A stretch of DNA of 64,000 nt from Girardia tigrina (lineage: Eukaryota). Below the pieces are notes generated by a model. The model searched no databases. It was not told the origin of the DNA and saw only the letters and a program-made list of their open reading frames with translations. Within the stretch, counting starts at the first letter, position 1; every line of letters starts with the position of its first letter. Position numbers and translations under genes: made by a program. The stretch covers positions 1 to 64,000 of the forward strand of contig MQRK01217620.1 in the NCBI GenBank assembly GCA_001938485.1. Reading direction: 5' to 3'. Positions 11,888 through 41,501 of this stretch are shown here, piece after piece.

Positions 11888-13066
11888 CTACAAATTGAAG
11901 GGCTTTAATATTGTAATATTAAAGGAAAATGCATATTCTTACGGTCAAGAAATCGTTTTTATGAAATCACTTCAACCACATAAAACACAGACAGACAAAG
12001 ACGAAAACGCACATGATAATAAAATATATTTAAAAGTGTGAAGGTCAATGTGAAATCACAACTATAGAAGCATCCCGAACCTTTTTAGGACCATCTGCTA
12101 TCACCTCCCCATAGTTTCGCAGTAGACAGAGCGTTAGAAGCGCGTCGAAGAAGCTAAAACTAACGTATAACGGAACAAAACACATAAAGTACCGACAGGA
12201 CTTACACAGTGATCCGAATTGAAGAGTCAGCCCTCCCCTGATAGAGCTACGCGAGAGACACCTGCAACAATAACGCGTCCGAAGATTGCGTCGCCCTAAG
12301 AAAAGTTATTAGCACTGAAGTAGATTTAAATTAATTAAAAACCAGACGAAAAATAACAAAGTCCCTTACTGGATTTTTCAATGAAGCTAGGAGGTCATCC
12401 GACCCTCCCATGAATGAGCATCGTGAGACGAGTCCCTGAATGAAACTCACCAAGTCCTAATACCTTCTTGAGCAGAGATATACCCCTGTGAAAATACGAA
12501 AATTAATTAACAAAAACAAAGCCCAATTAAAAACTCACCATGAATCAAGAATCACCCGAAAATTTCAGCCGAGTCATCGCTGAGGCAGCCGCACACAAAT
12601 GTCCAGATTTGAAGGTGTTCCATGACACACAGGCTAGGAACCTATAATAAAATAAAAAATTTTCAAAAATTAAAAATTCTTAAGAAGACACGCTTACTCG
12701 GCCGTCCAACCAGCATTGTAGAAGTTTCTAGACTTCTTGTTGACAGCAGGCGATTGGTGGAGTTGAGACACCCCTACACGAAACCTAGAATATAAAAGGG
12801 AATCACTTTTCCAGACAGTGCGCACTTATTGACCAACAATTTTATAAAAACATCTTGTTTGAGCTATTATTTGCACACACCAACCTTAAGCAGAATTTCA
12901 AACGCACATTTTGAACGATTCGAACAATTCACATTTTAAGAACATTTCCAAGAGCATTTCCTAGCGCTATTTTGGAGGTTCAAAACTACCATTTGAGAGC
13001 ATATCGAGAGTAGAAATCGACGTGGACGAACATTCTCCGGATCCAGGAAATAAAGCGAATTGTAAT

Positions 13067-15030
13067 TGTTCGGTTTCGTTATAATTGGAATTGAAAAATA
13101 ATTAAAGTTTATGTTTTTTTTGTTAAATTTAGAGTTTTCGATAAAATTAGAATTTAAAAATAAGTAAATTTTATTAACAAAAAAAGATAAAAAAATTTTT
13201 TTTATTGTTTTTAAATGAAAATTAAAACGATATATATATTTATATGGTTATATATATATATTGAAACGGACAAAAAAAATTAAGTTTGTTTTAACGTTTT
13301 AGTTAAAGTTAATCAGTGATATTTAAAAATCTCTCGGTAACTCCGGAGAATTTTGTCGAAGTTGTAATTGTCATATAATAAAAAAATTTGATGAAAATGG
13401 AAATCTCAGTGTTTCGATAACCTGTTTGAGAGGAGAGATTTGTATACGTAAAATATTTGTATCTTTAGAAAATACAAAAGAAGGATCACAATTGAGGAGA
13501 AAATTAGTCAAAAGAAGGAATCGGAGGCAGGAAATTTATCCAAATTGAAATTTAGAAAGAAAAGAAAACCAACAAGGGAGGAAACACAGATTCGTAGTGT
13601 CATGCAGCTTTAAGGTAATGTTTCTTCAGATAAAAATACACTCTGGAGATCGTCGATATTTGCGCCTTCAGTGGGATGACGAAGAGAACGAGGTGGTACG
13701 GTGTGGATCAAAAATCGGTCATGGGAAGGAATATAGTGAAGACGAGAGAGAAGTACTGTGCGAAAAGAGAGTTGATCCTCCTGCGTCGGATCAAGGGGGG
13801 AGTATGTTCGGTTTCGTTATAATTGCAATTGAAAAATAATTAAAGTTTATGTTTTTTTTGTTAAATGTAGAGTTTTCGATAAAATTAGAATTTAAAAATA
13901 AGTAAATTTTATTAACAAAAAAAGATAAAGAAAAAAAAATTTTTTTATTGTTTCTAAATGAAAATTAAATTGATATATATATTTATATGGTTATATATAT
14001 ATATATATTGAAACGGACAAAAAAAAATTAAGTTTGTTTTAACGTTTTAGTTAAAGTTAATCAGTGATATTTGAAAATCTCTCGGTAACTCCGGAGAAAT
14101 TTGTCGAAGTTGTAATTGTCATATAATAAAAAAAAATTGATGAAAATGGATGTTAATTTGGTTATTACCAAAGAATTATTCATGTATGAATTCAAAGAAT
14201 TCGATTATTCAAAGAATTATTCGATTATGACTTTAATGCGGATTATTTTGTAAAGACATTTGTAGTTAATCACATAATAATTCTCAATCGAAAATTGCAT
14301 GTCAAATTTTGTGAAGAAATTCATGATAAATGGTATGAATTAATGCGAATCTTTCAAGGTTGTAGAAACAGTATGGGAACGAAGTCTTGGAAAATAATCA
14401 CCAACAAACACGGTGTTAAACCGACCACTGACGATCACGAAAGCGACAGTGATTCGCGATTGCAGAGATACGACGTTTACGTTACTTCGAGAGTTCATGG
14501 AGAGTGTGCGNNNNNNNNNNNNNNNNNNNNGTTGAATTGTATCGCTCTCGATTACGATCTGATTTCGATTCCTGGGAGATTAATTCAACCGGATTATTTC
14601 GTCGGTGGCTCCTCAAGTGGTTCTAATGATTGCAAAAAAGAGATCAAGTGCTCAGATATTCCCAAATCGGTCGGTGCGCTCGGACGATTACTAAATGTAT
14701 GTCCTTGTATAATTATTGTGTTTATTTATATNNNNNNNNNNNNNNNNNNNNNNNNNNNNNNNNNNNNNNNNNNNNNNNNNNAAAAATATTATCAAAAATA
14801 AAAATAATAAAGATAAAATTAAAAATAATAATAACAATAATAACAAAAACAAGAATAAAAATATTAGTAAAAATGATAAAGATAAAAATAATAAAAATAG
14901 AAAATTTAGTCAAAACATAAATGACGATAAAAATGACATTGACGTAACCGAACACTTTCCTCCCACCTTGGTGACCCGCAGGGGGTCAATATATGATGAA
15001 AGCTTCCACTGCGCTGCTACTGCATCAACA
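13067..15030 (+). mobile_element. Internally deleted BEL/Pao LTR retrotransposon nested in E1
   Basis: TGTT...AACA ends; 5-bp TSD GTAAT (13062-13066, 15031-15035). 13067-13400 is repeated at 13805-14150 (truncated 5' LTR vs 3' LTR), with a purine tract AAGGGGGGAG just before 13805. Internal FKVMFLQIKIHSGDRRYLRLQW is a Pao RT motif. Confidence 0.85.
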
Positions 15031-15193
15031 GTAATTAATTTAGTTACTTTTATTTTTTTATTGTTGCAATAAAATTTTATGATGATAAGTTTTAATGTTA
15101 TTCCTTAATTTTAATTGATTTTAATATATAAACCGAGTTAATAGTTTAAGAGGAGTAGAAAGTAGTCGTCACCGCCGCCGTCCTTCGCTATAG

Positions 15194-15367
15194 ATGTCCC
15201 GAATCGATTTTCAAACGATAGAGCCGCCAGAGTTCGTGGGGGACCATACGGTCCTGATAATCGTTGACATAATGTCAATTTCAATGGAGGCGTTTATCAG
15301 AGGCGAACACAGCGAATCGTTCCTCGACGGACTAGATTCGCCCCTTCACGTGCAGCGAACAATATAG
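15194..15367 (+). CDS. 57-aa small ORF of the long-LTR family (E1 copy)
   Basis: MSRIDFQTIEPPEFVGDHTVLIIVDIMSISMEAF...DSP aligns without gaps to the N-terminus of the E2 ORF (M1,S2,Q7,H18,V20,I23,D25,S28,I29). Below the ORF-track cutoff; translated by hand. Confidence 0.6.
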   Translation: MSRIDFQTIEPPEFVGDHTVLIIVDIMSISMEAFIRGEHSESFLDGLDSPLHVQRTI

Positions 15368-18114
15368 CGACAAAGACGAGGGAAATTCTGCTCCGCCGAA
15401 ATCGGCCGCAAACCTTAACATTTCAATCTTATAAACCAAAAAATTTTATTGAACGTCGTTTTAATTGTTATTAAATCAATATTTAAATTATTTGATGTGT
15501 ATATCTTGATATGTTTTTGAGAAAGTTAATCGACTAGAGATAATGACGACCTTATGTATAGGAAACTTAATTCAGTAGAAAAAAACAATTAAGGCAAATT
15601 ATCCGAGTTGGTCGTGAACGTAAGCATAGCGCGACTTCGATAATAAGGTTCGATGCAAAAAATCGTGAATCTAGGCGAATTTCGATTCCGCGTTGCTAGT
15701 TAAAGGTTGAATTCCGATAATTTAAACAAACGTTTTTTTATGACGTTTATTTATTCATTTATATTTATTTTTATACGCTTATTTACTTTTAACTTAACTT
15801 TATACGTTTACTATTTATAATCGAATTTAACTGGTTTTACTGAAAATTCTGAATATAATTTTATAAAAATAGTTTTATTAGTATTTTAAAAGAAATCGTT
15901 TTATTTTTAAATCACCAATTCGGTAAGCGGGAACTGATTTGGGGAAACCAAGGTTTTAAAGAAATTTATGAAATAAGTAAATGTAGTTTAGGATTTAATT
16001 GGATTGTCACTTAGTAACTGAACGATTTACGATTTAATAACTCCTTGAGAATCGCTTCAGAAAGCGTATGATATGGAATTAATCTAAATAGAACTAATCT
16101 ATTTTATAATATAGGAATATGAAGTTGTATGAAGATGAGGTGAAAATCTTTGAGTAATATTCTTGCTACCAAACTATAGAATATTTCAATATTGAGGTCG
16201 ACATTTTGAGGTTTGAAAGTGGTTCCCAGAACTACCTATTAACTCTGAATTTTATGAGAACATAGTAGGGATAATAAGCATAGTTTAGAATCATCCCCGA
16301 GCGGCGCTCAGCTAGATGGGGGCCCATAGCCAATCCCGTCTTTATCAGAACCCGAAGGTCCTTCAAACCCGGCACTGCTAGGCAGATGTCGGGCGAGAAG
16401 AAACGTCCGACCCATTATATAAATAAATACAAATGAATATCAAAACAGACGTTTGGTTGTGGCTGACCCTTAATAGCCACTGGGGGCTCAAGAGCTTTCA
16501 AAAATGTTTATGCTCGAGAGTGTCGTGACAATATTCTGTCTTAAGAAAGAAAATACTAATAAAACTCACCGGATTAAAATTTATATTTATGAAAAAAAGC
16601 TGCTCAAATTAGACCTAATGAAATTCGAAAACATAAAAAAACAATAATATCTAAACAAATTTCCTAACTATTTAAATTTAATAATTGTTGATGTGAAAAA
16701 TAAATAGAAATGCACTTGTATAAATTTTCACGAAGATTTGTTTTTATTTTTTCAATAAATTTGATTTTTAAAATAGATTTTATTTAGAAAATTTGAAAAA
16801 TTTGTTAAAATTTTAAAACCATTGCGGGCCGCGAGTTTGACATGCCTGTTCTATATCATTAAAATCACTTTGGGGTAAACGAAATATCGTTTCCTCACTT
16901 ACCCAAATTTTAAATTCAACCCTATATGGTTAAGGGTTTCAACGAAAATCAGTTGTAAATATTTTTGATTTATAATTAATATTTTTATTTAAAAGTACTT
17001 CTTAGTCTTTTAATTGTAGTGTTATTCTATAAATCCCTTAGATGCGCCAACAAAAGTATAAATCGGAAGAGTTTATATTTTTAAATATTAAATTATATTG
17101 TCTATATAAATAAATAAAGAAAATAAGAAAAGTTTAGATATATCTAAAGAAAAGCAAATTTAGATTAGTTAGAAGAAATAACAAATAAAAGAATAAAAAT
17201 AATAAATAAAAATTATTTATAAAGAGAAAGTAATTAAAAAAATAGAATATAAAAGGTGTTGGAAGTGCTGTTTGAAAGCTAGAAATATAACATAAAGGAA
17301 AATAAACATAGTTGAGAAAAACTCACCCGATGACGAAAAATCGACCAACCGCCCCGCCACAAGCATGAAACACGGCAGGGTATCCGCGAGGGTGACCCAT
17401 CGGTGACTGAAGGACTCACGAATAGAGACAATAAACCTTAACAGGAAAAAGAATTAATTAAAACAAACCCGAAAAATAATAAAGTTTCTTACCGAAACAC
17501 CCTGTGGAGCTGAGAGATCATCCGACCCCCCCGCATAGCCCCTCGCGAGGCGGACCCCTGAATGGAACCCGTGGAACGCTGGTCGATCCTCGATAGAAAT
17601 TATTCACCCTTAAAGAAAAAAAATTAATTAAAAACCAGACAAAAAATAACAAAGTCACCTACTGAATTACCCAATAGGGTTAAGGGGTCAACCGACCCTC
17701 CCACGAAAGATCTTCGCGCGGGCAATCCGTGGACGAAACCCGCGAAGTCGTAGGACCACCCTGAGAAAAGTTATAGGCCCTGAAAGATCAAACAATTAAT
17801 TAAGAAAAATAGAAAATTAATTAATCTTACCATGAGTCAACCCAGAATCCGAAAATAATCGTCAGCTGACGAATCATCCATGAATCAGCAGCAGGCATGT
17901 TTCAGAGATTTGGGAGTGTGTAAAGACACAGGAGCATTGGATCCTATAATAAAATAAAAAAGTTTTAAAATTTTCGAAAAATTTTCGAAGCACACTTACC
18001 AGTCTAACCAACCAGCATCGCAGAAATGTCAGACAGTTGGTTGGCGAGATTCGGTTGGACAGAGGAGGACGACAGGATAGCATATCTACAATATAAAAGG
18101 AAAATCATTTTTAA

Positions 18115-18391
18115 CCTTCACTCTGTGCATTGAAAATTTTCCGGCGTCTGTGCATAGGGGTCAATCGTACCCCATATACATTTTGATATATTTTGTAAGG
18201 AAAACTAACAAAATTTTAGTTTTTATTTAAATTTTTATTAATTATAATAACTTATTAATAACAAAAGATTATTAAACTTTAATAAATGAAATTTATTAAG
18301 CTTTGGCAGTTTAATTTACTTGGCTCAATTTTTTTTAAATCGCTTTTTAAATAGACTGGGGTCCATTTGACCCCAATGCACAGAGTGAAGG
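18115..18391. mobile_element. piggyBac-type MITE inserted just downstream of the E2 TATA box
   Basis: Perfect 18-bp TIRs CCTTCACTCTGTGCATTG / CAATGCACAGAGTGAAGG; TTAA TSD on both sides; subterminal GGGTC...ACCCC palindromes. Confidence 0.9.
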
Positions 18392-18836
18392 TTAACGAAG
18401 TCGCACAATTTTTATAAACAAATCAAACCCACGTGTGCCGTTACAACAACTATTAGAAACCAACCGCAATCTCCCGAGCGATATTCAAAACAGAGTTTAC
18501 CGTACCGACAGACGTCCCGAACTCATAACTCGACCCACGACTGAACGCTTCTACGTACAGACGCATCGACTGGTGAAGATTATTAGGCACCGATTAAGCA
18601 GTGAATTTCCCAGCAGACCTTCGGATACCAACCAAATTGTAATTGTTTTATTGATAATCTTGTTGATTTTATTAATCTAAATAAACAAATTTAATACCGA
18701 TATTCCTTTAGTTATTAATAATTATTCAGAATGTTTAATTAATGATTAATTTACATACCGTACATCCGTTTTTATTGTAAAGTAGATCCAGTAGAGTCGT
18801 CGTTACAGTCGTCGTCGCCGCCGCTCCTTGCCGTAA

Positions 18837-19175
18837 ATGTCCCAGACTAGCCTTCAGCCGAGTAAATCGATCAGGGTCGAGGACGGTCACATTGTCATAA
18901 TGATCATTGATGCGGGATCGATACAATTAAACCATGTATCGGAGGCGACCGCGTTGAACGAATTTCCGGTAGAGCGAAGCCACGAGTTCACGTCCGAACC
19001 CGATAGTCCCGCTGCGAACAACGTCCCCAGCGCTGAACATCAACTGGTTATCATCGACGTGAAGTCGATATCGATAGATGACATGTCGGGACTGACTAGT
19101 TCCCGTGTAAACGATAACCCACCGATGTGGGGTGAAAACGTTCAAATCGGCGCCTGCGACCTTCAGAATATTTAA
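18837..19175 (+). CDS. 112-aa small ORF of the long-LTR family (E2 copy), motif duplicated
   Basis: Contains HIVIMIIDAGSIQL and HQLVIIDVKSISI; preceded by the conserved GTCGTCGCCGCCGC leader. Confidence 0.6.
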   Translation: MSQTSLQPSKSIRVEDGHIVIMIIDAGSIQLNHVSEATALNEFPVERSHEFTSEPDSPAANNVPSAEHQLVIIDVKSISIDDMSGLTSSRVNDNPPMWGENVQIGACDLQNI

Positions 19176-21757
19176 ACAAATACATTTTTTTACTATTCTA
19201 GGTCTTATTATGTTATGAATTTAGGAATTGTTATTGTTTCGAATTTAGAATTATTACAAAAAACTAAAATTATTATCGAATTTTATGAATGATTTAATTA
19301 ATAAAATTTCCATTTCTACTGTTATTATGAATTTTACCGGATTCGGAATTTTTAAGGAAAACTAAAGCTCTATGAATAGTTTAATTTAATTATGATTTTA
19401 GGAATTAGGATTATGATTGATCTAATTTTTGGAACTAATAGAATTCTATCATTTACTATAATTTCACAGGAAATAATTTTACTACATAAACCGTTTACTG
19501 ATCTTATAAAAAACCAAACTTCCACTAATTTTATTTTGATACTAATTTCGACTCCGACCGTTGTGAATAAAATTTAAAATTTCTATTACGGAACAACCTC
19601 CATTTCTATACAATGATAAATATTTCGTAAGTTTAAATGTGGGAGTCGACTAAAGAGGTTCGGGATTGAATAAAATCTTAAAGCAAAATTTAATTTTATC
19701 ACTGATGTCACAGCAATTTGGTCTTGATTTGGTGATTTGCGATGAATTTTGGTCTTATAATTGGATCTGACGATTTTTAACGTACAATTTTAATTTAATT
19801 CTAGGTTCGAGCGAATTTACCATCAACAACCTTATACTTAAAACCCGTGAGTGTTAAGTTTGCCGATGAAATTGCTATTAGCAGTGCCACTTGTTACAGT
19901 AAAATTAATTGACTGCAAATAGATTTACTAATATGAGTTAGCGCTAGTTATTATAATTCTCAATTGAAACCCTAGCAAATCAAGGTGATTCAATTAAAAG
20001 GCTAGTAGTTAAGGTAGCGATATGTATCTGAAAGGACCTCCTAATAATAAACCCTATGACAACAACATGTGATGATGGCAAGAATACATAATGGTACCAC
20101 GTTACAATTCGATCATTTGGGCAGATAGTAAGCTGTGCCATCTAGACAAGCATAAGTGATGCATTCACCGGAGGAATATACAAATATACAGAGTGGTAAC
20201 ATACTCTTATCGATACTGACCCAGGTGGGGGGCCCATAGCCTATCCCATCTTTAGCCGAACCCGAAGGCCCCTTGAGCTTGGCACTGCTAGGCAGATGTG
20301 AGGCAAGACATGAGGCGTCCGACCCTATATACAATGTCATTAAAACCGAAATAAATTTAGAGCGGGTTGTGGTTGACCCTTAACAATCACTGGGGGCTCA
20401 TGAGCTTTTAAAAATGTTTACACTCGAGAGGGTCGTGACAAAGGTCATTATTAATTATGAAAGATTCAGATTTTAAAGTTCAAAACCTAACAAAAGTTAT
20501 TTTGAAATTCGATCAAGAGTGAATCTGATTGTGCGTCTCAGTAGTTAATTGAAATTAAATCTGATTACGCGTCTATACTAAGACTATATTGCGAACTGTT
20601 TTGATCAAATTTCGATTGCGAATTCGATACTTAATAGTATAAAAGTCGACATTCACTAGAGACAAAAGCAGAAAAAAATCAAACTATTGAGTCGGTAGAA
20701 GAACGACTGAATACGACCAAAATTGAGATGCATAAACCCATATTCCTAATATATTATATCTCGTTATATAAATCACGCTGTAAAGTGTGAAACAAAAGTT
20801 TTAAAATATAAACAATCCGAGTTGTCGTTAAGGTTCTCGGTTTTTAAATATAAAATCGACCAGGGGTCAAATAAAATATAATTTTCTCTTTTACTTGTAA
20901 TTAAATCGTGAATACTAAAATATATTTTTATAAAGAAAAATCACTGTGTTCTATTATTGATTTTTATAAACATACCAAACACTCAACAAATAGTATAAAC
21001 AAATAAAATGCAAAATTGCGGAAGAAGCGGAGGTGGTCAATCTGGATAGCCTGCATTAATACAATTCTGTTGGTACAGCGCACTCTCCGAAAGACGCCCG
21101 GAAGCCTATGAAATCGATCGAAAACCGTAGATGTTAAATGGTTAAATTAACCCAGATTTCGAATAATGGCGATTTTGATTTTTCCTACACGGAATTTCAT
21201 GAAAAATTTCATGAAAATTTCAATATTATACTAATTTATTTGATAAATGACGATTTCTATCATTTATTTCTAATTATATTTCTAAAAATCAATTTAGGTT
21301 AAATTTGCAAAATTTCGTTATCATCTGATTCACGGTTTTTCAGTCAAGCTCAAATTTTACTATGATCAAATATATGCTGATAAAATGAGAAATATTAGAG
21401 AAAAATGTCAGTAAATCCGCGTAAAGTTGAGATAACTCAGCATAGTCCGCATCTGTCTGTACAGCGCCATTGCCGAAAGGCCCTGGGAGCCGATTTATTT
21501 GACTGACTGTTAAATATCCATAGAATTCAAAACAATTGATAATAAAGTATAATAATTACGATTTAAAATAGAAATTTTAATTTAAAATAATAAAGAAATT
21601 TAAATTAAAATAATTAGAAATTTTAAATTTTAAATAGAAACTTTCAAAGTCGAAAATTCAGCTCACCCGTCATGTATGATCGGTATTTTTCCAGTAATAG
21701 AATAAAATTTTTTAAGTAATTATTTTATAATTGTTTTTAAAATGTAAAATTGATTAA

Positions 21758-29172: not shown

Positions 29173-31642
29173 TCTGAGAATATATTTTTCATACGTTTTG
29201 TTTCTTTGTTTATATCTAAACCTTTCCTTTTTCTTCCTCCACCACCTTGATCCATTATTGAAACAGCCTCACGAAAAGCACCTTTAGCATTGGACTTAAT
29301 TTCTGGTAATATATCAGCAGCAGCTTCCTTCAATATGTTACGACACGACATTTATATCACCTTACATATAGCACAAAGAATAAGGGAATAGTCTAACTCG
29401 ACTATTCCCCAGTATGTTTAGATAGGCCCCATCTAACATAGTTAACCTCATGAACCTTAAAGGCTCAGAAATACCACGTCAGACGGAGCCGAAGACTCGA
29501 ACCACTGCCAGATGATCGTAACTCATGTGAGGACCTTAAGAACCCTATAAAATAACAGCATTATTCAAATACCTTAAATTAATTAATAAAATTAATTACT
29601 GGAAAGTGCAAGCGCACTAGAGACCCGTGAATCAGCCATCTGCTGACTTCCGCGACAGTTGATGATAGGCAGCCTCGGATCGCGAACCTATAAACAAAAT
29701 AAATCAGAAAAACAGAAAGACCCCTCCCAACGATACCTTTGTAAACATGATAACCACAGACGGACGTCGGAGAATTAACGACAACGGCAGCGACATCCTG
29801 GACGAGTAACCTATAGATTAACAGATGTCAGATAAACAGTCGTCAATGAAAATGTCTAGCTTGCAATGATGATTTCCCCCGTTCCTCCCACTGAAAAATC
29901 CTGTCACTGAATAGCGGATAAACATCTGTCACACCTGTTGTTGATATTTCGCTGTAGATGAGCAATTTTATCATACAGTAACGACCCCCTCCCTTCCATC
30001 TTATCACTTAACAGGATATCGGCGAACAAACACATGTCAACAGACACATACAGATTACCCGAACGCGTCGGACAACGTATGCGTCTAATTAGATATAAAT
30101 ACTCGATGCATCTTTGCATGCAGGCACACAAAAAACGCACCTTTTACCAATATTTACGCACTTTTATACTACAATTTTATTTTACAATTTATAATCATAA
30201 ATTTGAACTATTCCTGACGATTATATCACGCAATATTTACTATCTATCAATAAAACGGAACAATTAGTGACTAGCAAGTATGATCTGTTCTTGAGTTTAA
30301 TTTTAATTTTTTATTCTGTTTATTATATTCCATTCTCATTTGATTTATACTCTCATTCATTTTGTTATTATTATCTCTTACAAACATTAAATATAACTTA
30401 TTAAAATTATTCCTTTTATTTAATCCGTATTTGGTTAGGAGTTCAGTAGATTTTATTAGAGCTATGTACTGCTACTTGATTAATTAGAGGTTCGAAAATA
30501 TTGAAATTTATCGCTGGTCTCTATCTACCGCTCCATGAGGGGGTTCCGAAGAGGAGTTTTGAGATGAATAACGATCTTAGATTGAGTACTGATCGTGTGA
30601 GAGACGTGACGAAAAGGGGTAGAGGTATGACAGGTGAGTGTGGCACACTGGCAACAAGAGAGACCGCGATGTAAACGTCGAGGTCTTATGTGTACATAAT
30701 GTAGATAGAACTTCAAATAATATGTGGTAGAATGGTTTGTCGAGTTGTTTTATTTAAATTCCTCCTTAATTGGAATAATTCTAGTTTCGATGTAATTTCT
30801 ACACTAAGAATTATTAATAACTTTTCTTGAACAAAAATAATTCAGCGGATATGTGAATCCTAACTATCGTTCTAGTTTAGTTTGCGCTTAATCTCAATGT
30901 AAAAATTTATTTAAATGAATTACCTACGGAGTATTTCATGATGAATAATAGTAAACATTATATACACATTATAACTATAAACATATTCGAAAATCCATAT
31001 CTTAGTGATAACGTCGTGAATAAAATGAAGACTAAAATAAATTGAGAATCGTTATTATAATCAATGAAAACTATTGGTAGTGACGAAGAAGCTTTTGGAG
31101 ATGTCGAAGGTCGATCACGAAAGTTCGATTGTCGCCTATTTCCTCGAGGCTCTCTTCGTCTGACGTAATTAATAAATGAATACATCAAAGTACTTACGAA
31201 TAATGGAAAACAATATCAACCCCTCGGGCAACACCCGTTACTGGTTAGAACCCGAAAGCGCTCCAAAGCGCATAAAACTTGTTGATATGTGTGGAGCAGG
31301 CGCGTCCGTTCCCTTAAGTAACGAATTCAAAGCGTGCATGAGTTGCCGTTGAACTCAAAAAACGGATGGGGGCTCTGAGTCAACAAAAATGTTGTCGAAA
31401 GAGGGGAACGCGACAAATGCTTCAACAGGCTTTTTAGTACGATTCAAGATATTTTTACCAGCACGTAATATTGCTTTACCAGCAATCTTTGCTACAGGTA
31501 TACCGAATTTCCTCATTATAGGAATTGCCTATCTGCCTAATGTAGCCTTCCAATTACCTCCATACCGTTTACCTCTAAAGTATGGAAGATTACCACCCTG
31601 TAGAGGACCACAATACATTCGTACAATATCTCTATCAATCAT
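29169..31642 (-). pseudogene. Polinton basic core (pVII-like) protein split by E3 (31642-31416 plus 29335-29169)
   Basis: The joined halves read MIDRDIVRMYCGPLQGGNLPYFRGKRYGG...KPVEA-LKEAAAD...DQGGGGRKRK...NIFSE*, with QGG/GG motifs. Its stop overlaps the MCP ATG (ATGA). Confidence 0.7.
29336..31415 (+). mobile_element. E3: divergent 2.08-kb solo-LTR-like element
   Basis: TGTTACGA...CGCGACA ends; TSD AATA/AATG (1 mismatch). Removing it restores the Polinton ORF. TATAAATA at ~30094; 3' end shares GAACCCGAA, GCGTCCG and TGGGGGCTC with E1, E2 and E4. Confidence 0.8.
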
Positions 31643-32569: not shown

Positions 32570-34562
32570 AATCGGGACCGGAGCGTCTAACAATCAACCG
32601 ACGAGCAAGCGATTCATAACCCGAAAGCGAGAACCCGAGAATTTCCGGCGCTAGGACGAATACCCGATTCAGAGCTAAACTAACGCCAGGGGAACCCAAT
32701 TACGCGTTGATACACGAAGTCCGACTACATTCCTCCGCGACCGATTTTTCTACTGGGCACAATTGTTATTGTCGATGTAAATTTAATTTTTGTATTTATT
32801 TGTCGTTTTATTATGAATTTCAATAATTTATATATTTATGAGTTTTGTTTATTTAACATTTTATTTAATCATACTCTATAGAAGTAGCTTACCTTTTCAT
32901 AGAAAGAATTAAATAGCGCCGTCGCCGCCGCCGACCGTCGTTCCCGTTATGAATTCTCACGTTACGAATCCACTTATCGAGCGTCTAGAGAATATTCTGG
33001 GGCTCCTCCCCGAGTCCGAGGTAGATGAGAACAACAATGCATTCCGAGCCGCATTGCCACTAATTATTATCGACGTGAGGTCGATAGCCCTGAGCGAGAT
33101 GCTCGAGTCGACTGGGCCGCACCATTTAGACTAACGGCGCGGAAGCTGCCCATCAACATTATGACTTAATAAATAAAGTTTTATAAACCGCAGTTTAATT
33201 CTTTCGTTCGATTTAATACTTACTTCAATTTTGTAACTTTAGGAATTTTATTAGTGAATTTTTATAATGAATATTAACACAAGTTTTGTTATTGAGTCTT
33301 TAATATTAGTAGTGAACTTGAATATCAGTTTTATTAATGAATGTTCGAGAGTATTTAATAGACGTGAAAACAAATTTAATTCGTGAATATGTAAGGGTAT
33401 TTAATCAATAATAAGCGGGAGTATAAATTTGCTAGCGAGTGTTTAGAACTATTTTAGCGCAAATAAGAAGCTCGAGTGAATTTTGTATTTAGTTTTTTTG
33501 TGTTACTAACAGCTCCTCTCTTAATTATTTTAATCAGAAAGGTTATAAATACCTTGGTTCGTAAATCCCGCAGTAACTCATCAAACGTTATGAATATAAT
33601 CCGTTCAACGGCAAGTATCATTTAAAATATTACTTAAGGTCGTTGATTAAAGTAAGGCATTAAAACAAATGCGAAGTCAGTCAATTTTAAGAAATTCGTC
33701 TTTTACTGATAGTTTTTCTTTTGCGATTTGATTACTATCGAGAGGTATTTCATAAAAAAAATTTTTTATATAAATACATATAAATCATAAATTGAGAAGT
33801 TTTACAGAATATTCTAACATTGGCCGAACGGAACTTAAATTCAAATTATCGTTAAATTCTTCTAGTTTCCTATTTTATTTTAATGATTTTACCACTAATA
33901 TTTTGGCGGGCTTCTCGACTCAATTAACAATTGTTAAGAACCAAGCGATAATTCCAAGGTTAATTCAATTTAAAACTCAGACGTTATCTGAGTTTCATCG
34001 AGTCATGCAGGGAAAAGCGAATTAAAGGGTGGGTATACTCGTGAATAGTTTAACGAGTTAAGCAATAATAAAATTTCAAGAACCGCCGATGTTAAGGAAC
34101 AGATTTGACAACAGGGCGTGAGGCGTCTGCTGTCGATAGCTGACCGATAAGATACTGTCGTACAACAAATTGAGTGGTGCGGATCTATTATACGGTTATA
34201 GCGAACCTTGACAACTTATATGTTTGAGCGCGTAAAAGTACAGAAATATTATCTCATAAAACACAATAGTACCACGACACATAAAGGTATAAGATACATC
34301 ATCCCCGAGCGACACTTTGCTAGGTGGGGGGCCCATAGCCCATCCAATCTTTACCCGAACCCGCAGGCCCTTCAGACTCGGCACTGCCAGGCAGATGTCG
34401 AGCGAGAAGAGGCGTCCGACCCATAAATAACTATATTGCATCATTGAGTATTAAAAAGTAGCATACGAATAATATAAACTGAAATCGGGTTGTGACTGAC
34501 CCTTAATAGTCACTGGGGGCTCCGAGCAAACCAAAACTGCTACAAACAAGTGGGTCGTGACA
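32570..34562 (+). mobile_element. E4: 5'-truncated copy of the long-LTR family
   Basis: Contains the sORF (32949-33134) and the conserved 3' region ending GGGTCGTGACA. Confidence 0.8.
32949..33134 (+). CDS. 61-aa small ORF of the long-LTR family (E4 copy)
   Basis: LIIIDVRSIALSEM motif; GTCGCCGCCGCC leader just upstream of the ATG. Confidence 0.55.
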   Translation: MNSHVTNPLIERLENILGLLPESEVDENNNAFRAALPLIIIDVRSIALSEMLESTGPHHLD

Positions 34563-35443: not shown

Positions 35444-37280
35444 CGTGGTGTGGATTTCATTCTAGTTTATTTGGATGACATTCTCATCGGCAGCGAAAAC
35501 ATAGTGGAACACAAAACACACCTTGCAACTAGATTACAAATCCTTAAGACGAACGGGTTAAATCTCAATTTAAAAAAAATGTGAATTCAACAAAACTCAA
35601 ATCAATTTCCTTGGACATACGATCGAGAAGAATACAATCTATCCTATCAAAGAGAAAATCGAGGCAATAAATTCAATTCCACCTCCCAAAAATGTTCAAG
35701 AAATCAGAAGATTTTGTGGAATGGTAAACTTTTACCACAAATTTATTCCAAATTGTTCAAACATCCTAGCTCCACTCACTGACATGATTAAGAACAAAAC
35801 CAAACTCCAAATAATTCATTGGACAGAGGAATCGATCAAAACATTCAATCAAATCAAAGATGAATTAAATAACATCACAAAATTACATATGTTACAACCA
35901 GATAGTAATCTAACGTTAACCATCGAATTTTGGGATAGGTGCAGCTTTAACACAAACTCATGACAACCAAGAAGTTCCAATATCATTTTTTTCGCAAAAA
36001 CTTAACAAAACGGAAAGTCGTTACTCCACTTTTGATCGTGAATTGTTAGCAATACACAGATCAATCAAACACTTCCAAGATTATCTTGAACATCTAACTT
36101 TTACAATTAATACAGATCACAAACCTTTGACAAATGCATTAAACTTAAAAAATCCAAGTCCAAGACAACTTATACAAACATGTTACATCTCACAATTCAA
36201 CTGTAACATAAAATACATACCAGGTAAAACAAACATCGTGGCAGATTTTTTGTCCAGAAATATGGTTACTACAATAAATTTTTTCAATTTTTTAGACATT
36301 AAAGATTTAGAAAATAAACAAGACTCCACAATAATCGAATGTAAAGACCAATCTTTCATCTTAAAGAAAATTAAAAACATCTGGTACGACAAGTCAATAA
36401 CGGGAACCATTAGACCATTAATACCTGAAGAATTAAGATCTTTATGCATCAAAAACATCCACGAACTCGGACACTATGGTTTCAAAGCAACTTACCATAT
36501 ATTAAAACACCAAGTCTGTTGGAAAAATCTCAGAAGACATAAAACAATTCATTCGAAACTGTACCATTTGTAACAAGAACAAAATAACCAAGAGACACCC
36601 TATAAAAAAATCAATTACGTTGAATTAAACAAATTAGAACATTTACACTTAGATCTAACAGGTCCACTTCCACCAAACAGAAATTATAAATACTTATTAA
36701 CAATCATAGATAGAACAACCAACTGGTTCGAGATCATCAAACTCAAAGATATCTCTGCAAATTCCATCTGTAACAAATTCGAATCAGAATGGATAGCACG
36801 CTATCCACCACCAAAAAGATTAATTACAGATCAAGGGAAACAATTTTTATCAAAACAATTTCAAAATTTATGTGAAAAATTCAATATAAGGAAAATTAAA
36901 ACAACTTACAATCCACAATCAAACGGGAAAGTGGAAATTTTTCACAGATATTTAAAACAAACACTACGAACAAAATGCAACAACTCAGATTGGCTGGAGA
37001 CTTCCGGAAGTTTGTCTTGCACTCAGACTCAAACCAAATAGTCTTGATGATAAATCACCTTATGAGAAATTAGTTGGAGTAAGATTCAATTTTGAACTCT
37101 TTAAAAGAACAAGTGAAGAACATTCCAACAGCACTAACAAACAAACAGACGCAAAAACAGCATACGTCAAAATACAAAATACTAAGGGTTTTGACGATAG
37201 ATACGATGGGCCATACAATATAATTAAAACAGGCAAGAACACAGTAACACTCAATATAAACAACAAAGATAAAACGTAAA
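35444..37280 (+). pseudogene. Ty3/Gypsy pol remnant (RT, RNase H, integrase)
   Basis: VYLDDILI, RFCGMVNFYHKFIPN, RYSTFDRELLAI, TDHKPL, HELGHYG, HLDLTGPLP, ITDQGKQF, YNPQSNGKVE; frameshifted. Confidence 0.92.
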
Positions 37281-37345
37281 ATCTACGAAATATCAAACTA
37301 AACTAATACACTTATTGACACTCCGTTTTCCCAGGGGGGTGCTAA

Positions 37346-40039: not shown

Positions 40040-41501
40040 TCGGACTTTAGGTAATTTTTACAAGGGGAAGTATAGCAAAAATATAGTGCATAGCTCGGCT
40101 GTTCGGACCTTACGTCCGTACTAATCAGAAGTTACTCTCTGATAAAATTCTCATCGGCGGGATACATTCCCGAACTAAATACAACTTCGGAACCTTCCTC
40201 GTCGGGATTATTGCTTTTACGATTATTTTGGGGCATAGCTAATGGGTGACGACGACTGGGACGACGACAAGACCTAACTTTACTCGCTGAAACTAAAATA
40301 GGTCAGAATTTATTTATTAAATATATATTAAAAACAATTTACAAATTTATACATTTATTGCAAGACTATTAAAATATAAAATTCAATACGAAATCCCGTA
40401 AAATTACATTAGATTTAAATTTGATCTCCGGAGGAACGAATTCGCAAGTGGCTTGGGTTTCGTAGAATGATTCTCCAAATTAAATTAATCTGATCGTTCT
40501 CGTCAAGGTTCCTGTTGAATCTTGCTGTCTTTAATTTATGGTTCTCGAATTTGTGTCTTTGAATTACGTCTCAAATTTTCGTCTTCGAAATACGTCTCGG
40601 CTTTGTGATCTATAAATAACTGTCGTTTTTTGTTGTCAGATTTTGTGGGCGCTCTGATGAAAAACGATTCTTCTTTTATACTGTAGAGAAAAATGTTTGT
40701 TGCTTCTTCTTGGCCAATCAGGTTCTGCCAAGTACTCGTCTGAAAATTCTGCGATGCTGGTTGGTCGGGCTTGACGGTATGTCTTCAAAATATTCTTAAA
40801 ATTTTTATTTCATTTGCTTGCTGGTGTACCGCCGCACACTCTAGAATTTTTAGAGTTCGTGTGTGGCCGCGTCACCGATGATTCATGTAGAATTGTCAGC
40901 TGGTTGCTATTCTTGGAGTTACGGCTGACTCAGGGTAACTTTGTTTTTCTTAATTAATTTTCATATCTTTACAGGGTTATATCTCCTTTCGGAAATCTGT
41001 CAGTGCTTCACGGGTTCCACCCAGGGATTCACTTCACGAGGGACTACACGGGGATGGTCGGTTGACCTCCTAGCTCAAATGGATAGTTCGGTAGGCGACT
41101 TTATTTTGAGTTCATTTTTAATTAATTTTTGTTTCTCTCAGGATTCATACCCCTTCTCACAGCTCTTCCACACATTAACGGTTCGTCTCCAGGAGTGCGT
41201 CTCTTCTCACTCTATCTGAGGTGGGATGATTGTCCGTCTCTTTCTATAGGGTAAGTTTTTATTTGATCTCGTCTGATTTTCTTTATATCGTATTTTATAG
41301 CTCTACTGCGGTGTCTGCGTCATTTTATCAGTCTACGAGGGTTCGGGATCCTCTTCACAACACTAGTGGGATCAACCAAACTTTGTATTGAGCTTTTTAA
41401 GTATATGTATCGTATCAAAACCATTTTCTTCTTTTCTTATATAACGTAGTCGTATATTTAATCCTAATACTGTCTAGTTCAATGAATTTCAGACCGCAAC
41501 A
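40040..41501 (-). mobile_element. E5: inverted, 3'-truncated copy of the long-LTR family
   Basis: TATAAAAG on the minus strand at ~40680; exon/intron array on the plus strand homologous to E1/E2; disrupted sORF from 40236 (..RE*LLISTDVRS); candidate 5' end TGTTGC at 41501. Confidence 0.75.

Follow-up and report, generated by a model that had tools for sequence, protein, structure and literature searches.

The left 1.2 kb of a long terminal repeat (LTR) in the 64,000-nucleotide stretch of Girardia tigrina DNA analysed here (the window) appears to be occupied by a compact ladder of short introns, antisense to the genomic RNA of a Burro-like giant retroelement. We are confident that the splicing of this ladder is real, and the RNA that it yields is probably non-coding and self-contained. 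Spliced non-coding antisense RNAs of retroelements are known; what is new, and in our judgement real, is that one should fit entirely within the LTR of a giant element that carries env. Our leading reading, to which we give a little less than even weight, is that the ladder is a multiply spliced antisense unit, likely non-coding and likely polyadenylated within the LTR, that likely acts in cis on the LTR promoter.

The ladder lies in E2 (17257..20440, plus strand), a 3.2-kb solo LTR (TG...CA) of a Burro-like giant Ty3/gypsy element whose ends are common to other copies. An earlier note on this DNA had described five GT-AG introns on the minus strand of E2, and all five pairs of ends were confirmed as GT..AG: intron 1 (17944..17999, 56 nt, GTAAGT..TAG), intron 2 (17780..17830, 51 nt, GTAAGA..CAG), intron 3 (17609..17662, 54 nt), intron 4 (17437..17492, 56 nt) and intron 5 (17279..17326, 48 nt). 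The four internal GC-rich exons (17327..17943, minus strand; 17943-17831, 17779-17663, 17608-17493 and 17436-17327) likewise have the lengths given there, 113, 117, 116 and 110 nt. Intron GC is 0.18-0.25 versus 0.45-0.59 in the exons. Among 34 copies of the family, intron 3 begins with GT in 29 and with GC in 3 and ends with AG in 31; the corresponding counts are 32 GT and 28 AG for intron 4 and 30 GT and 29 AG for intron 5, whose flanking exon is conserved at only 0.66. For the donor of intron 3, a heuristic splice score favours 17658 over 17662.

The suggestion that some of the exons are tandem paralogues held for exons 2 and 3 (64%, z 10.8), was weak for exon 4 (z 2.9-3.8) and failed for exon 1. 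Exons 2-4, with exon 4 as the doubtful member, appear to have arisen by duplication of a ~171-nt unit of exon plus intron. A short motif, (T/A)CCGACCC, is found once per duplicated exon (17521-17528 and 17691-17698) and in the right-end block of the LTR (20318-20325), and can be read as a small hairpin or as a putative DNA-binding site.

Evidence for splicing comes from contigs of four runs (X1-X4) of one sample, whose status as RNA is a guess, aligned at 80% likeness. These contigs are unstranded and carry no start, end or level, and the strand of their joints is taken from the splice signals. Contigs of three of the four runs (X1, X2 and X4) omit intron 1 exactly, with CT..AC on the sense strand; one X2 contig crosses it with 102 nt on the shorter side and 6 differences in total. 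Intron 2 is skipped exactly in two of the four (X1 and X3), with variants of 1-3 nt in X1, X2, X3 and X4 alike. In nine X1 contigs, loose ends at 17671 resemble the exon that comes next, across the intron-3 junction, in a sister subfamily; among the joints listed for the X1-X4 contigs none falls at introns 3, 4 or 5 or at the candidate sixth intron described below. Unspliced contigs of the ladder are also present in the sample. Processed DNA copies were considered as the origin of the intron-1 joint and none was found: a single tight pattern, run on a fragmented assembly, matched the joined form 0 times in the genome versus 32 times for the unspliced form. The claim that the ladder is spliced in the antisense direction is supported for introns 1 and 2, which likely-RNA contigs skip, the polarity being given by the primer-binding site (PBS; see below). 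Because the contigs derive mostly from sister copies, their joints do not establish transcription of E2 itself.

The splice sites also stand out by their conservation. Within the 34 copies of the family, the GT of splice sites is retained at 0.92 and the AG at 0.90, versus 0.64 and 0.66 where GT and AG occur elsewhere, and intron bodies are conserved like exons (0.75-0.97 versus 0.66-0.92). When compared with 21 diverged LTRs (the units aligning at close to 70% identity, the copies being related and the counts not independent), 98 of 126 splice dinucleotides are kept, as against 208 of 646 exonic and 96 of 193 intronic GT/AG; dinucleotides of A and T only are kept within introns in 1382 of 2028 cases (0.68). 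A comparison with 23 LTRs gave similar figures. The splice GT/AG, whose conservation the earlier note had proposed to check, are kept at 78% versus 32-50% for other GT/AG. Since the intron bodies are as conserved as the exons and A/T-only pairs are kept at 0.68, the spacers may also have a role at the DNA level.

It could be argued that the ~171-nt units are enhancer repeats made of TTAATTAA spacers and GC-rich boxes, or the relic of a captured gene, and that leaky antisense transcripts are spliced merely because AT-rich 50-nt spacers resemble introns. The spacer interiors are indeed well conserved, the units are repeated in tandem, like those of many U3 regions, and LTRs are frequently bidirectional promoters (PMC10186651). 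We nevertheless consider this explanation improbable, given the preferential retention of the splice GT/AG, the restriction of GT/AG at spacer edges to one strand in 24 LTR groups and also in E3 with its unrelated sequence, and the closing of the unit by a conserved end signal.

Ladders elsewhere bear on the same question. The earlier note had reported equivalent introns in E1 and E5, and GT..AG ends were found for four of four and three of three of them, respectively. E1 (11937..16530, plus strand; TSD ATAT) is a related solo LTR, ~70% alike to E2, with its antisense ladder at 12154-12697. E5 (40935..41501, plus strand) is the ladder of a related LTR that lies on the minus strand; its outer end is at 41501, with a poly(A)-signal-like motif at 41400. 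The similar sites in unrelated sequence that had been seen in E3 (29545..29864, minus strand), a far-diverged LTR-like element, correspond to three intron-like spacers, GT..AG of 55 and 49 nt and GC..AG of 54 nt. When both strands of the window (64 kb) were scored for short-intron candidates, 10 of the 22 top-scoring ones sat in the three ladders; the score is a heuristic and was not trained on these elements. Beyond the window, 55 LTR left ends were sorted into 24 groups and their representatives counted, which gave 53 antisense candidates versus 3 sense candidates, with 13.5 expected from 25-nt local shuffles; one of the 24 groups had no intron candidate at all. (A first crude scan, with 162 versus 4, included duplicates and non-LTR rows; 7 rows were removed and 7 added for the 24-group count.) In 10 LTRs that were searched for extra ladder introns, the middle of the LTR and the sense strand held only scattered candidates.

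E2 is flanked by a 4-bp target site duplication, AAGG (17253-17256 and 20441-20444), and ~200 nt are missing from its left end. Copies of the ladder are numerous, with 1718 first-look candidates in the 1.43-Gb genome, of which 40 were scored. They have the left ~1.2 kb and the right 240-400 nt in common, while the middle is subfamily-specific. These copies run from TG to CA over ~3.0-3.3 kb, and among 10 copies with both ends, 8 have an exact 4-bp duplication, one matches at 3 of 4 bp and one has none. The conserved right-end block (20212..20440, plus strand) is followed directly by the PBS in 5' LTRs: TTTTGG stands immediately after the right end in 27 of 100 matches among those listed, and opens a common PBS that is present in 8 of 30 loci and that we take to be a match to tRNA-Pro. 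The opposite polarity was rejected, as the left LTR end has no common PBS in the 30 loci examined of 34 matches. With the PBS at the right end, the plus strand of the window is the sense strand of the element and the ladder is antisense. Ahead of the 3' LTR lies a short purine tract, GGAGGA(A/G), in 19 of 20 cases; a pattern for a long-purine tract gave 1 match, the actual tract being short.

The PBS is followed by a row of short ORFs and then by a giant polyprotein, which is broken. Its domain order by Pfam is Ty3 capsid, CCHC knuckle, ubiquitin-like, Monjiviricetes fusion domain, PR, dUTPase, RT, RH and IN. The env-type fusion domain (PF24664) was found twice between gag and PR with E 1e-25, and the dUTPase (E 0.006) and ubiquitin-like (E 3e-5) matches both fall short of the curated Pfam cut-offs. 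A complete copy in contig C227859 measures 28,717 bp (TSD TAGT), with LTRs that are 97-99.7% alike and a ladder in both; its LTR belongs to a sister group of the E2 family. In C219690, an LTR of the E2 family itself (88% to L034) stands ahead of the same PBS and short-ORF row. The host of the E2 ladder is the LTR of a Burro-like giant env-bearing Ty3/gypsy element, the likeness to Burro being one of described features. Like our element, Burro/GYPSM1, a planarian giant gypsy-like element of ~29 kb, has multi-kb LTRs, a gag CCHC knuckle, a ubiquitin-like domain, a mononegavirus-type fusion domain between gag and PR and a dUTPase between PR and RT (PMC6431247). Unlike here, the available part of that account mentions neither an antisense intron ladder nor any series of short ORFs behind the PBS, and the MATH, BIR, BCL2 and ankyrin domains that it reports by HHpred had no Pfam match in 13 ORF pieces of our element.

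Two parts of the internal region deserve mention in their own right. Between the PBS and gag there are at least 7 short sense ORFs (~115-155 aa) with AT-rich spacers between them (L118:164-2517 in C222199; also L112, L114 and L120), the first of which has only two relatives and no Pfam or Atlas match. After the integrase, more than 1,100 codons follow (L130:6521-10000, minus strand) whose sequence has no clear Pfam match and ends in a likely membrane-spanning stretch.

Where does the antisense transcript begin and end? The octamer TATAAAAG (18092..18099, plus strand), identical in E1, E2 and E5, is a putative sense TATA box and would also serve as the pyrimidine tract of a sixth acceptor. The earlier note had the RNA transcribed opposite to the TATA promoter; the antisense direction stands, but a spliced X2 contig (record 12) covers TATAAAAG, so the antisense RNA overlaps the site, whose TATA role is itself putative. 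A sixth intron upstream of the ladder, with an acceptor overlapping TATAAAAG, is probable from its signals: in 12 of 18 sites, this acceptor is preceded by a GTAAG/GTAGG donor at a distance of 51-66 nt. In E2 the candidate intron spans 18086..18432 (minus strand; 66 nt without an inserted MITE; donor GTGGGT), and its use would define an upstream exon of 86 nt (18000..18085, minus strand), as suggested by the contigs and the acceptor survey. The X2 contig of record 12 retains part of this candidate intron. The MITE (18115..18391, 277 bp) is private to E2, has terminal inverted repeats and a TTAA duplication, and is presumably piggyBac-like; it is covered by contigs of the likely-RNA sample.

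At the other end, 46 of 52 LTRs carry AATA(T/C/A)A with TGTA and a T-rich tract behind it, mostly 85-140 nt from the outer LTR end; the remaining 40,329 nt contain 2 matches. This poly(A)-signal-like motif was defined after viewing sequences and then checked on a separate set, in which 17 of 19 separately fetched 3' LTRs carry it. The hexamer variants seen in the LTRs are AATAAA, AATATA and AATACA, and AAUAAA, AAUAUA and AAUACA are reported planarian poly(A) signals (PMC5068929). E2 itself is deleted at its left end and has no end-signal region.

A conserved end signal inside the LTR points to a self-contained transcript and leaves unsupported the proposal that the ladder is a 5' leader which, in a 3' LTR, would run or splice into an interior antisense ORF in the manner of spliced HBZ. 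There is such an ORF: it has 74-114 codons, starts ~590-620 nt upstream of the 3' LTR and is found in 19 of 19 junctions, and in the one copy checked there is an acceptor-like site at 477 nt. However, this ORF, the only conserved one that the suggested search turned up, lies wholly under a sense ORF in the frame with which it has third positions in common, and the sense reading shows the stronger synonymous bias (1608/1369 versus 1394/1552); it is best seen as a wobble-sharing shadow. The poly(A)-like signal precedes the LTR end, and the ladder leader is packed with upstream ATGs and stops. Taken together, these observations make an HBZ-like leader very unlikely.

The observation that no reading frame is open across copies was upheld. 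In exons 1 and 2 each frame has stops that most copies share, there is no conserved frame, and coding exons were rejected. We also considered a small protein that was encoded by the spliced RNA and has decayed in the copies examined. A length of 117 nt (39 codons) is found for exon 2 in 29 of 34 copies and for exon 3 in most, many copies have a single running frame with just 2-4 stops, and in one copy a run of 130 codons starts from an ATG, all of which would suit such a protein. On the other hand, the stops are shared, exon 1 is either 113 or 123 nt among copies, 10 of 52 gap runs are multiples of three, the longest open runs are no better than shuffles (P 0.31-0.76, 4 copies) and the ladder translations do not carry over to E1, so we give a decayed small protein hardly any weight. 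An array of hairpins or microRNAs, or of ribozymes, was rejected as well, the exons folding no more stably than shuffled sequence, with antisense mean z of -0.1 to -1.4 (15-17 copies per exon); a Rfam search of 6 loci at E<=1 gave no match.

How might the unit work? Lying antisense to the genomic RNA, the ladder has the sole orientation in which introns survive reverse transcription. On the cis-acting reading that we prefer, RNA polymerase II would start at or beyond the sense TATAAAAG and cross it; five or six introns of ~50 nt would be spliced, as introns 1 and 2 appear to be in the one likely-RNA sample; and the transcript would end at AATA(T/C/A)A near the outer LTR end. An RNA of ~0.7-0.8 kb would then come from every 5', 3' and solo LTR. 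Conservation extends to the splice signals, the unit sizes and the end signal but not to exon sequence, frame or fold, which suggests that the act of transcription and processing outweighs the product. It is tempting to speculate that the antisense unit controls how active the overlapping sense promoter is, most likely via an open, intron-marked state in which the enhancer/promoter region of the LTR is kept transcribed and processed like a host gene. Spliced enhancer lncRNAs of mammals offer a precedent for cis action (PMC7035876), and introns counter HUSH silencing in human cells (PMC8770142). It is conceivable, though on balance unlikely, that the ladder is a form of mimicry, in which antisense introns with their own poly(A) signal over the promoter make each LTR look host-spliced and let it escape surveillance of intronless nucleic acids or piRNA licensing; a retroelement cannot retain sense introns through reverse transcription, and the ladder would for that reason be placed antisense.

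The same spliced non-coding antisense RNA could also act as a brake, being exported and cut into antisense piRNAs or siRNAs, or interfering with the sense promoter that it crosses, so that the element is limited or paused by the logic of TART/HeT-A, micropia or BLV AS1. We regard this as a real possibility, if one well short of even. The antisense RNAs of TART/HeT-A are non-coding, multiply spliced and linked to the rasiRNA pathway (PMC1636488, PMC2615633), planarian piRNAs target LTR elements including Burro (PMC8532177) and certain spliced non-coding transcripts are sources of piRNAs (bioRxiv 10.64898/2026.01.28.702291); the spliced contig here overlaps the sense TATAAAAG. Complementarity does not require splicing, however, and since the U3 is inherited via replicating elements only, a pure brake would be expected to decay unless host survival selects for it. 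Poor sequence conservation fails to separate the cis-acting reading from small-RNA production, because the antisense RNA always matches its own element.

Several known systems resemble the ladder in part. TART and HeT-A of Drosophila also have a non-coding antisense RNA, with several introns in the terminal non-coding part, and intron size and spacing are kept across diverged subfamilies as they are here. Those elements, in contrast, are non-LTR and telomeric, with RNAs that are kilobases long and run into the element (PMC1636488, PMC2615633), whereas the ladder is a compact unit with apparent start and end within the LTR and is borne by every solo LTR. BLV AS1/AS2 and HTLV-1 s-hbz are likewise spliced antisense RNAs, arising from LTR R/U5, and the BLV forms are short and judged non-coding; HBZ differs in being coding and interior, while the ladder has no dedicated antisense ORF and has its end signal in the LTR. 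A U3 ladder of 5-6 short introns is not described for BLV or HTLV-1 in the available part of PMC10186651. Multi-exonic enhancer lncRNAs are similar in that they are sequence-independent and their splicing is tied to the activity of the source regulatory region, but they come from mammalian host enhancers and the link is an association (PMC7035876). The literature searched yielded no account of such a ladder of antisense introns in the LTRs of planarians, the original Burro paper (Grohme 2018) and its supplements lying outside this coverage.

The TART/HeT-A work leaves open why those antisense RNAs are spliced (PMC1636488, PMC2615633). The question now presents itself in a compact, repeatable 1.2-kb unit with 5 or 6 introns and an end signal, in many diverged LTR families, and can thus be addressed with the RNA, piRNA and chromatin data that already exist for planarians. 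Each of hundreds or more of solo LTRs may amount to a spliced lncRNA gene that comes ready-made, which would bear on the annotation of planarian lncRNAs and on the sources of piRNAs.

We also noted features of the LTRs that touch on their modular make-up. The LTR middle changes with subfamily ~35 nt beyond TATAAAAG (window 18393-20200 and L031-L050), while subfamilies have the ladder and right end in common, and 3' internal ends that are near-identical (89-94%, L145-L164) are attached to quite different LTR left ends. The LTR modules look as if they recombine ~35 nt past TATAAAAG. Elsewhere in the window, an additional LTR right-end block (34298-34562) is 71% alike to E2, and scans found no ladder in its left part; a decayed pol fragment at 35470-37340, RT/RH/IN-like by eye, belongs to another, ordinary LTR element.
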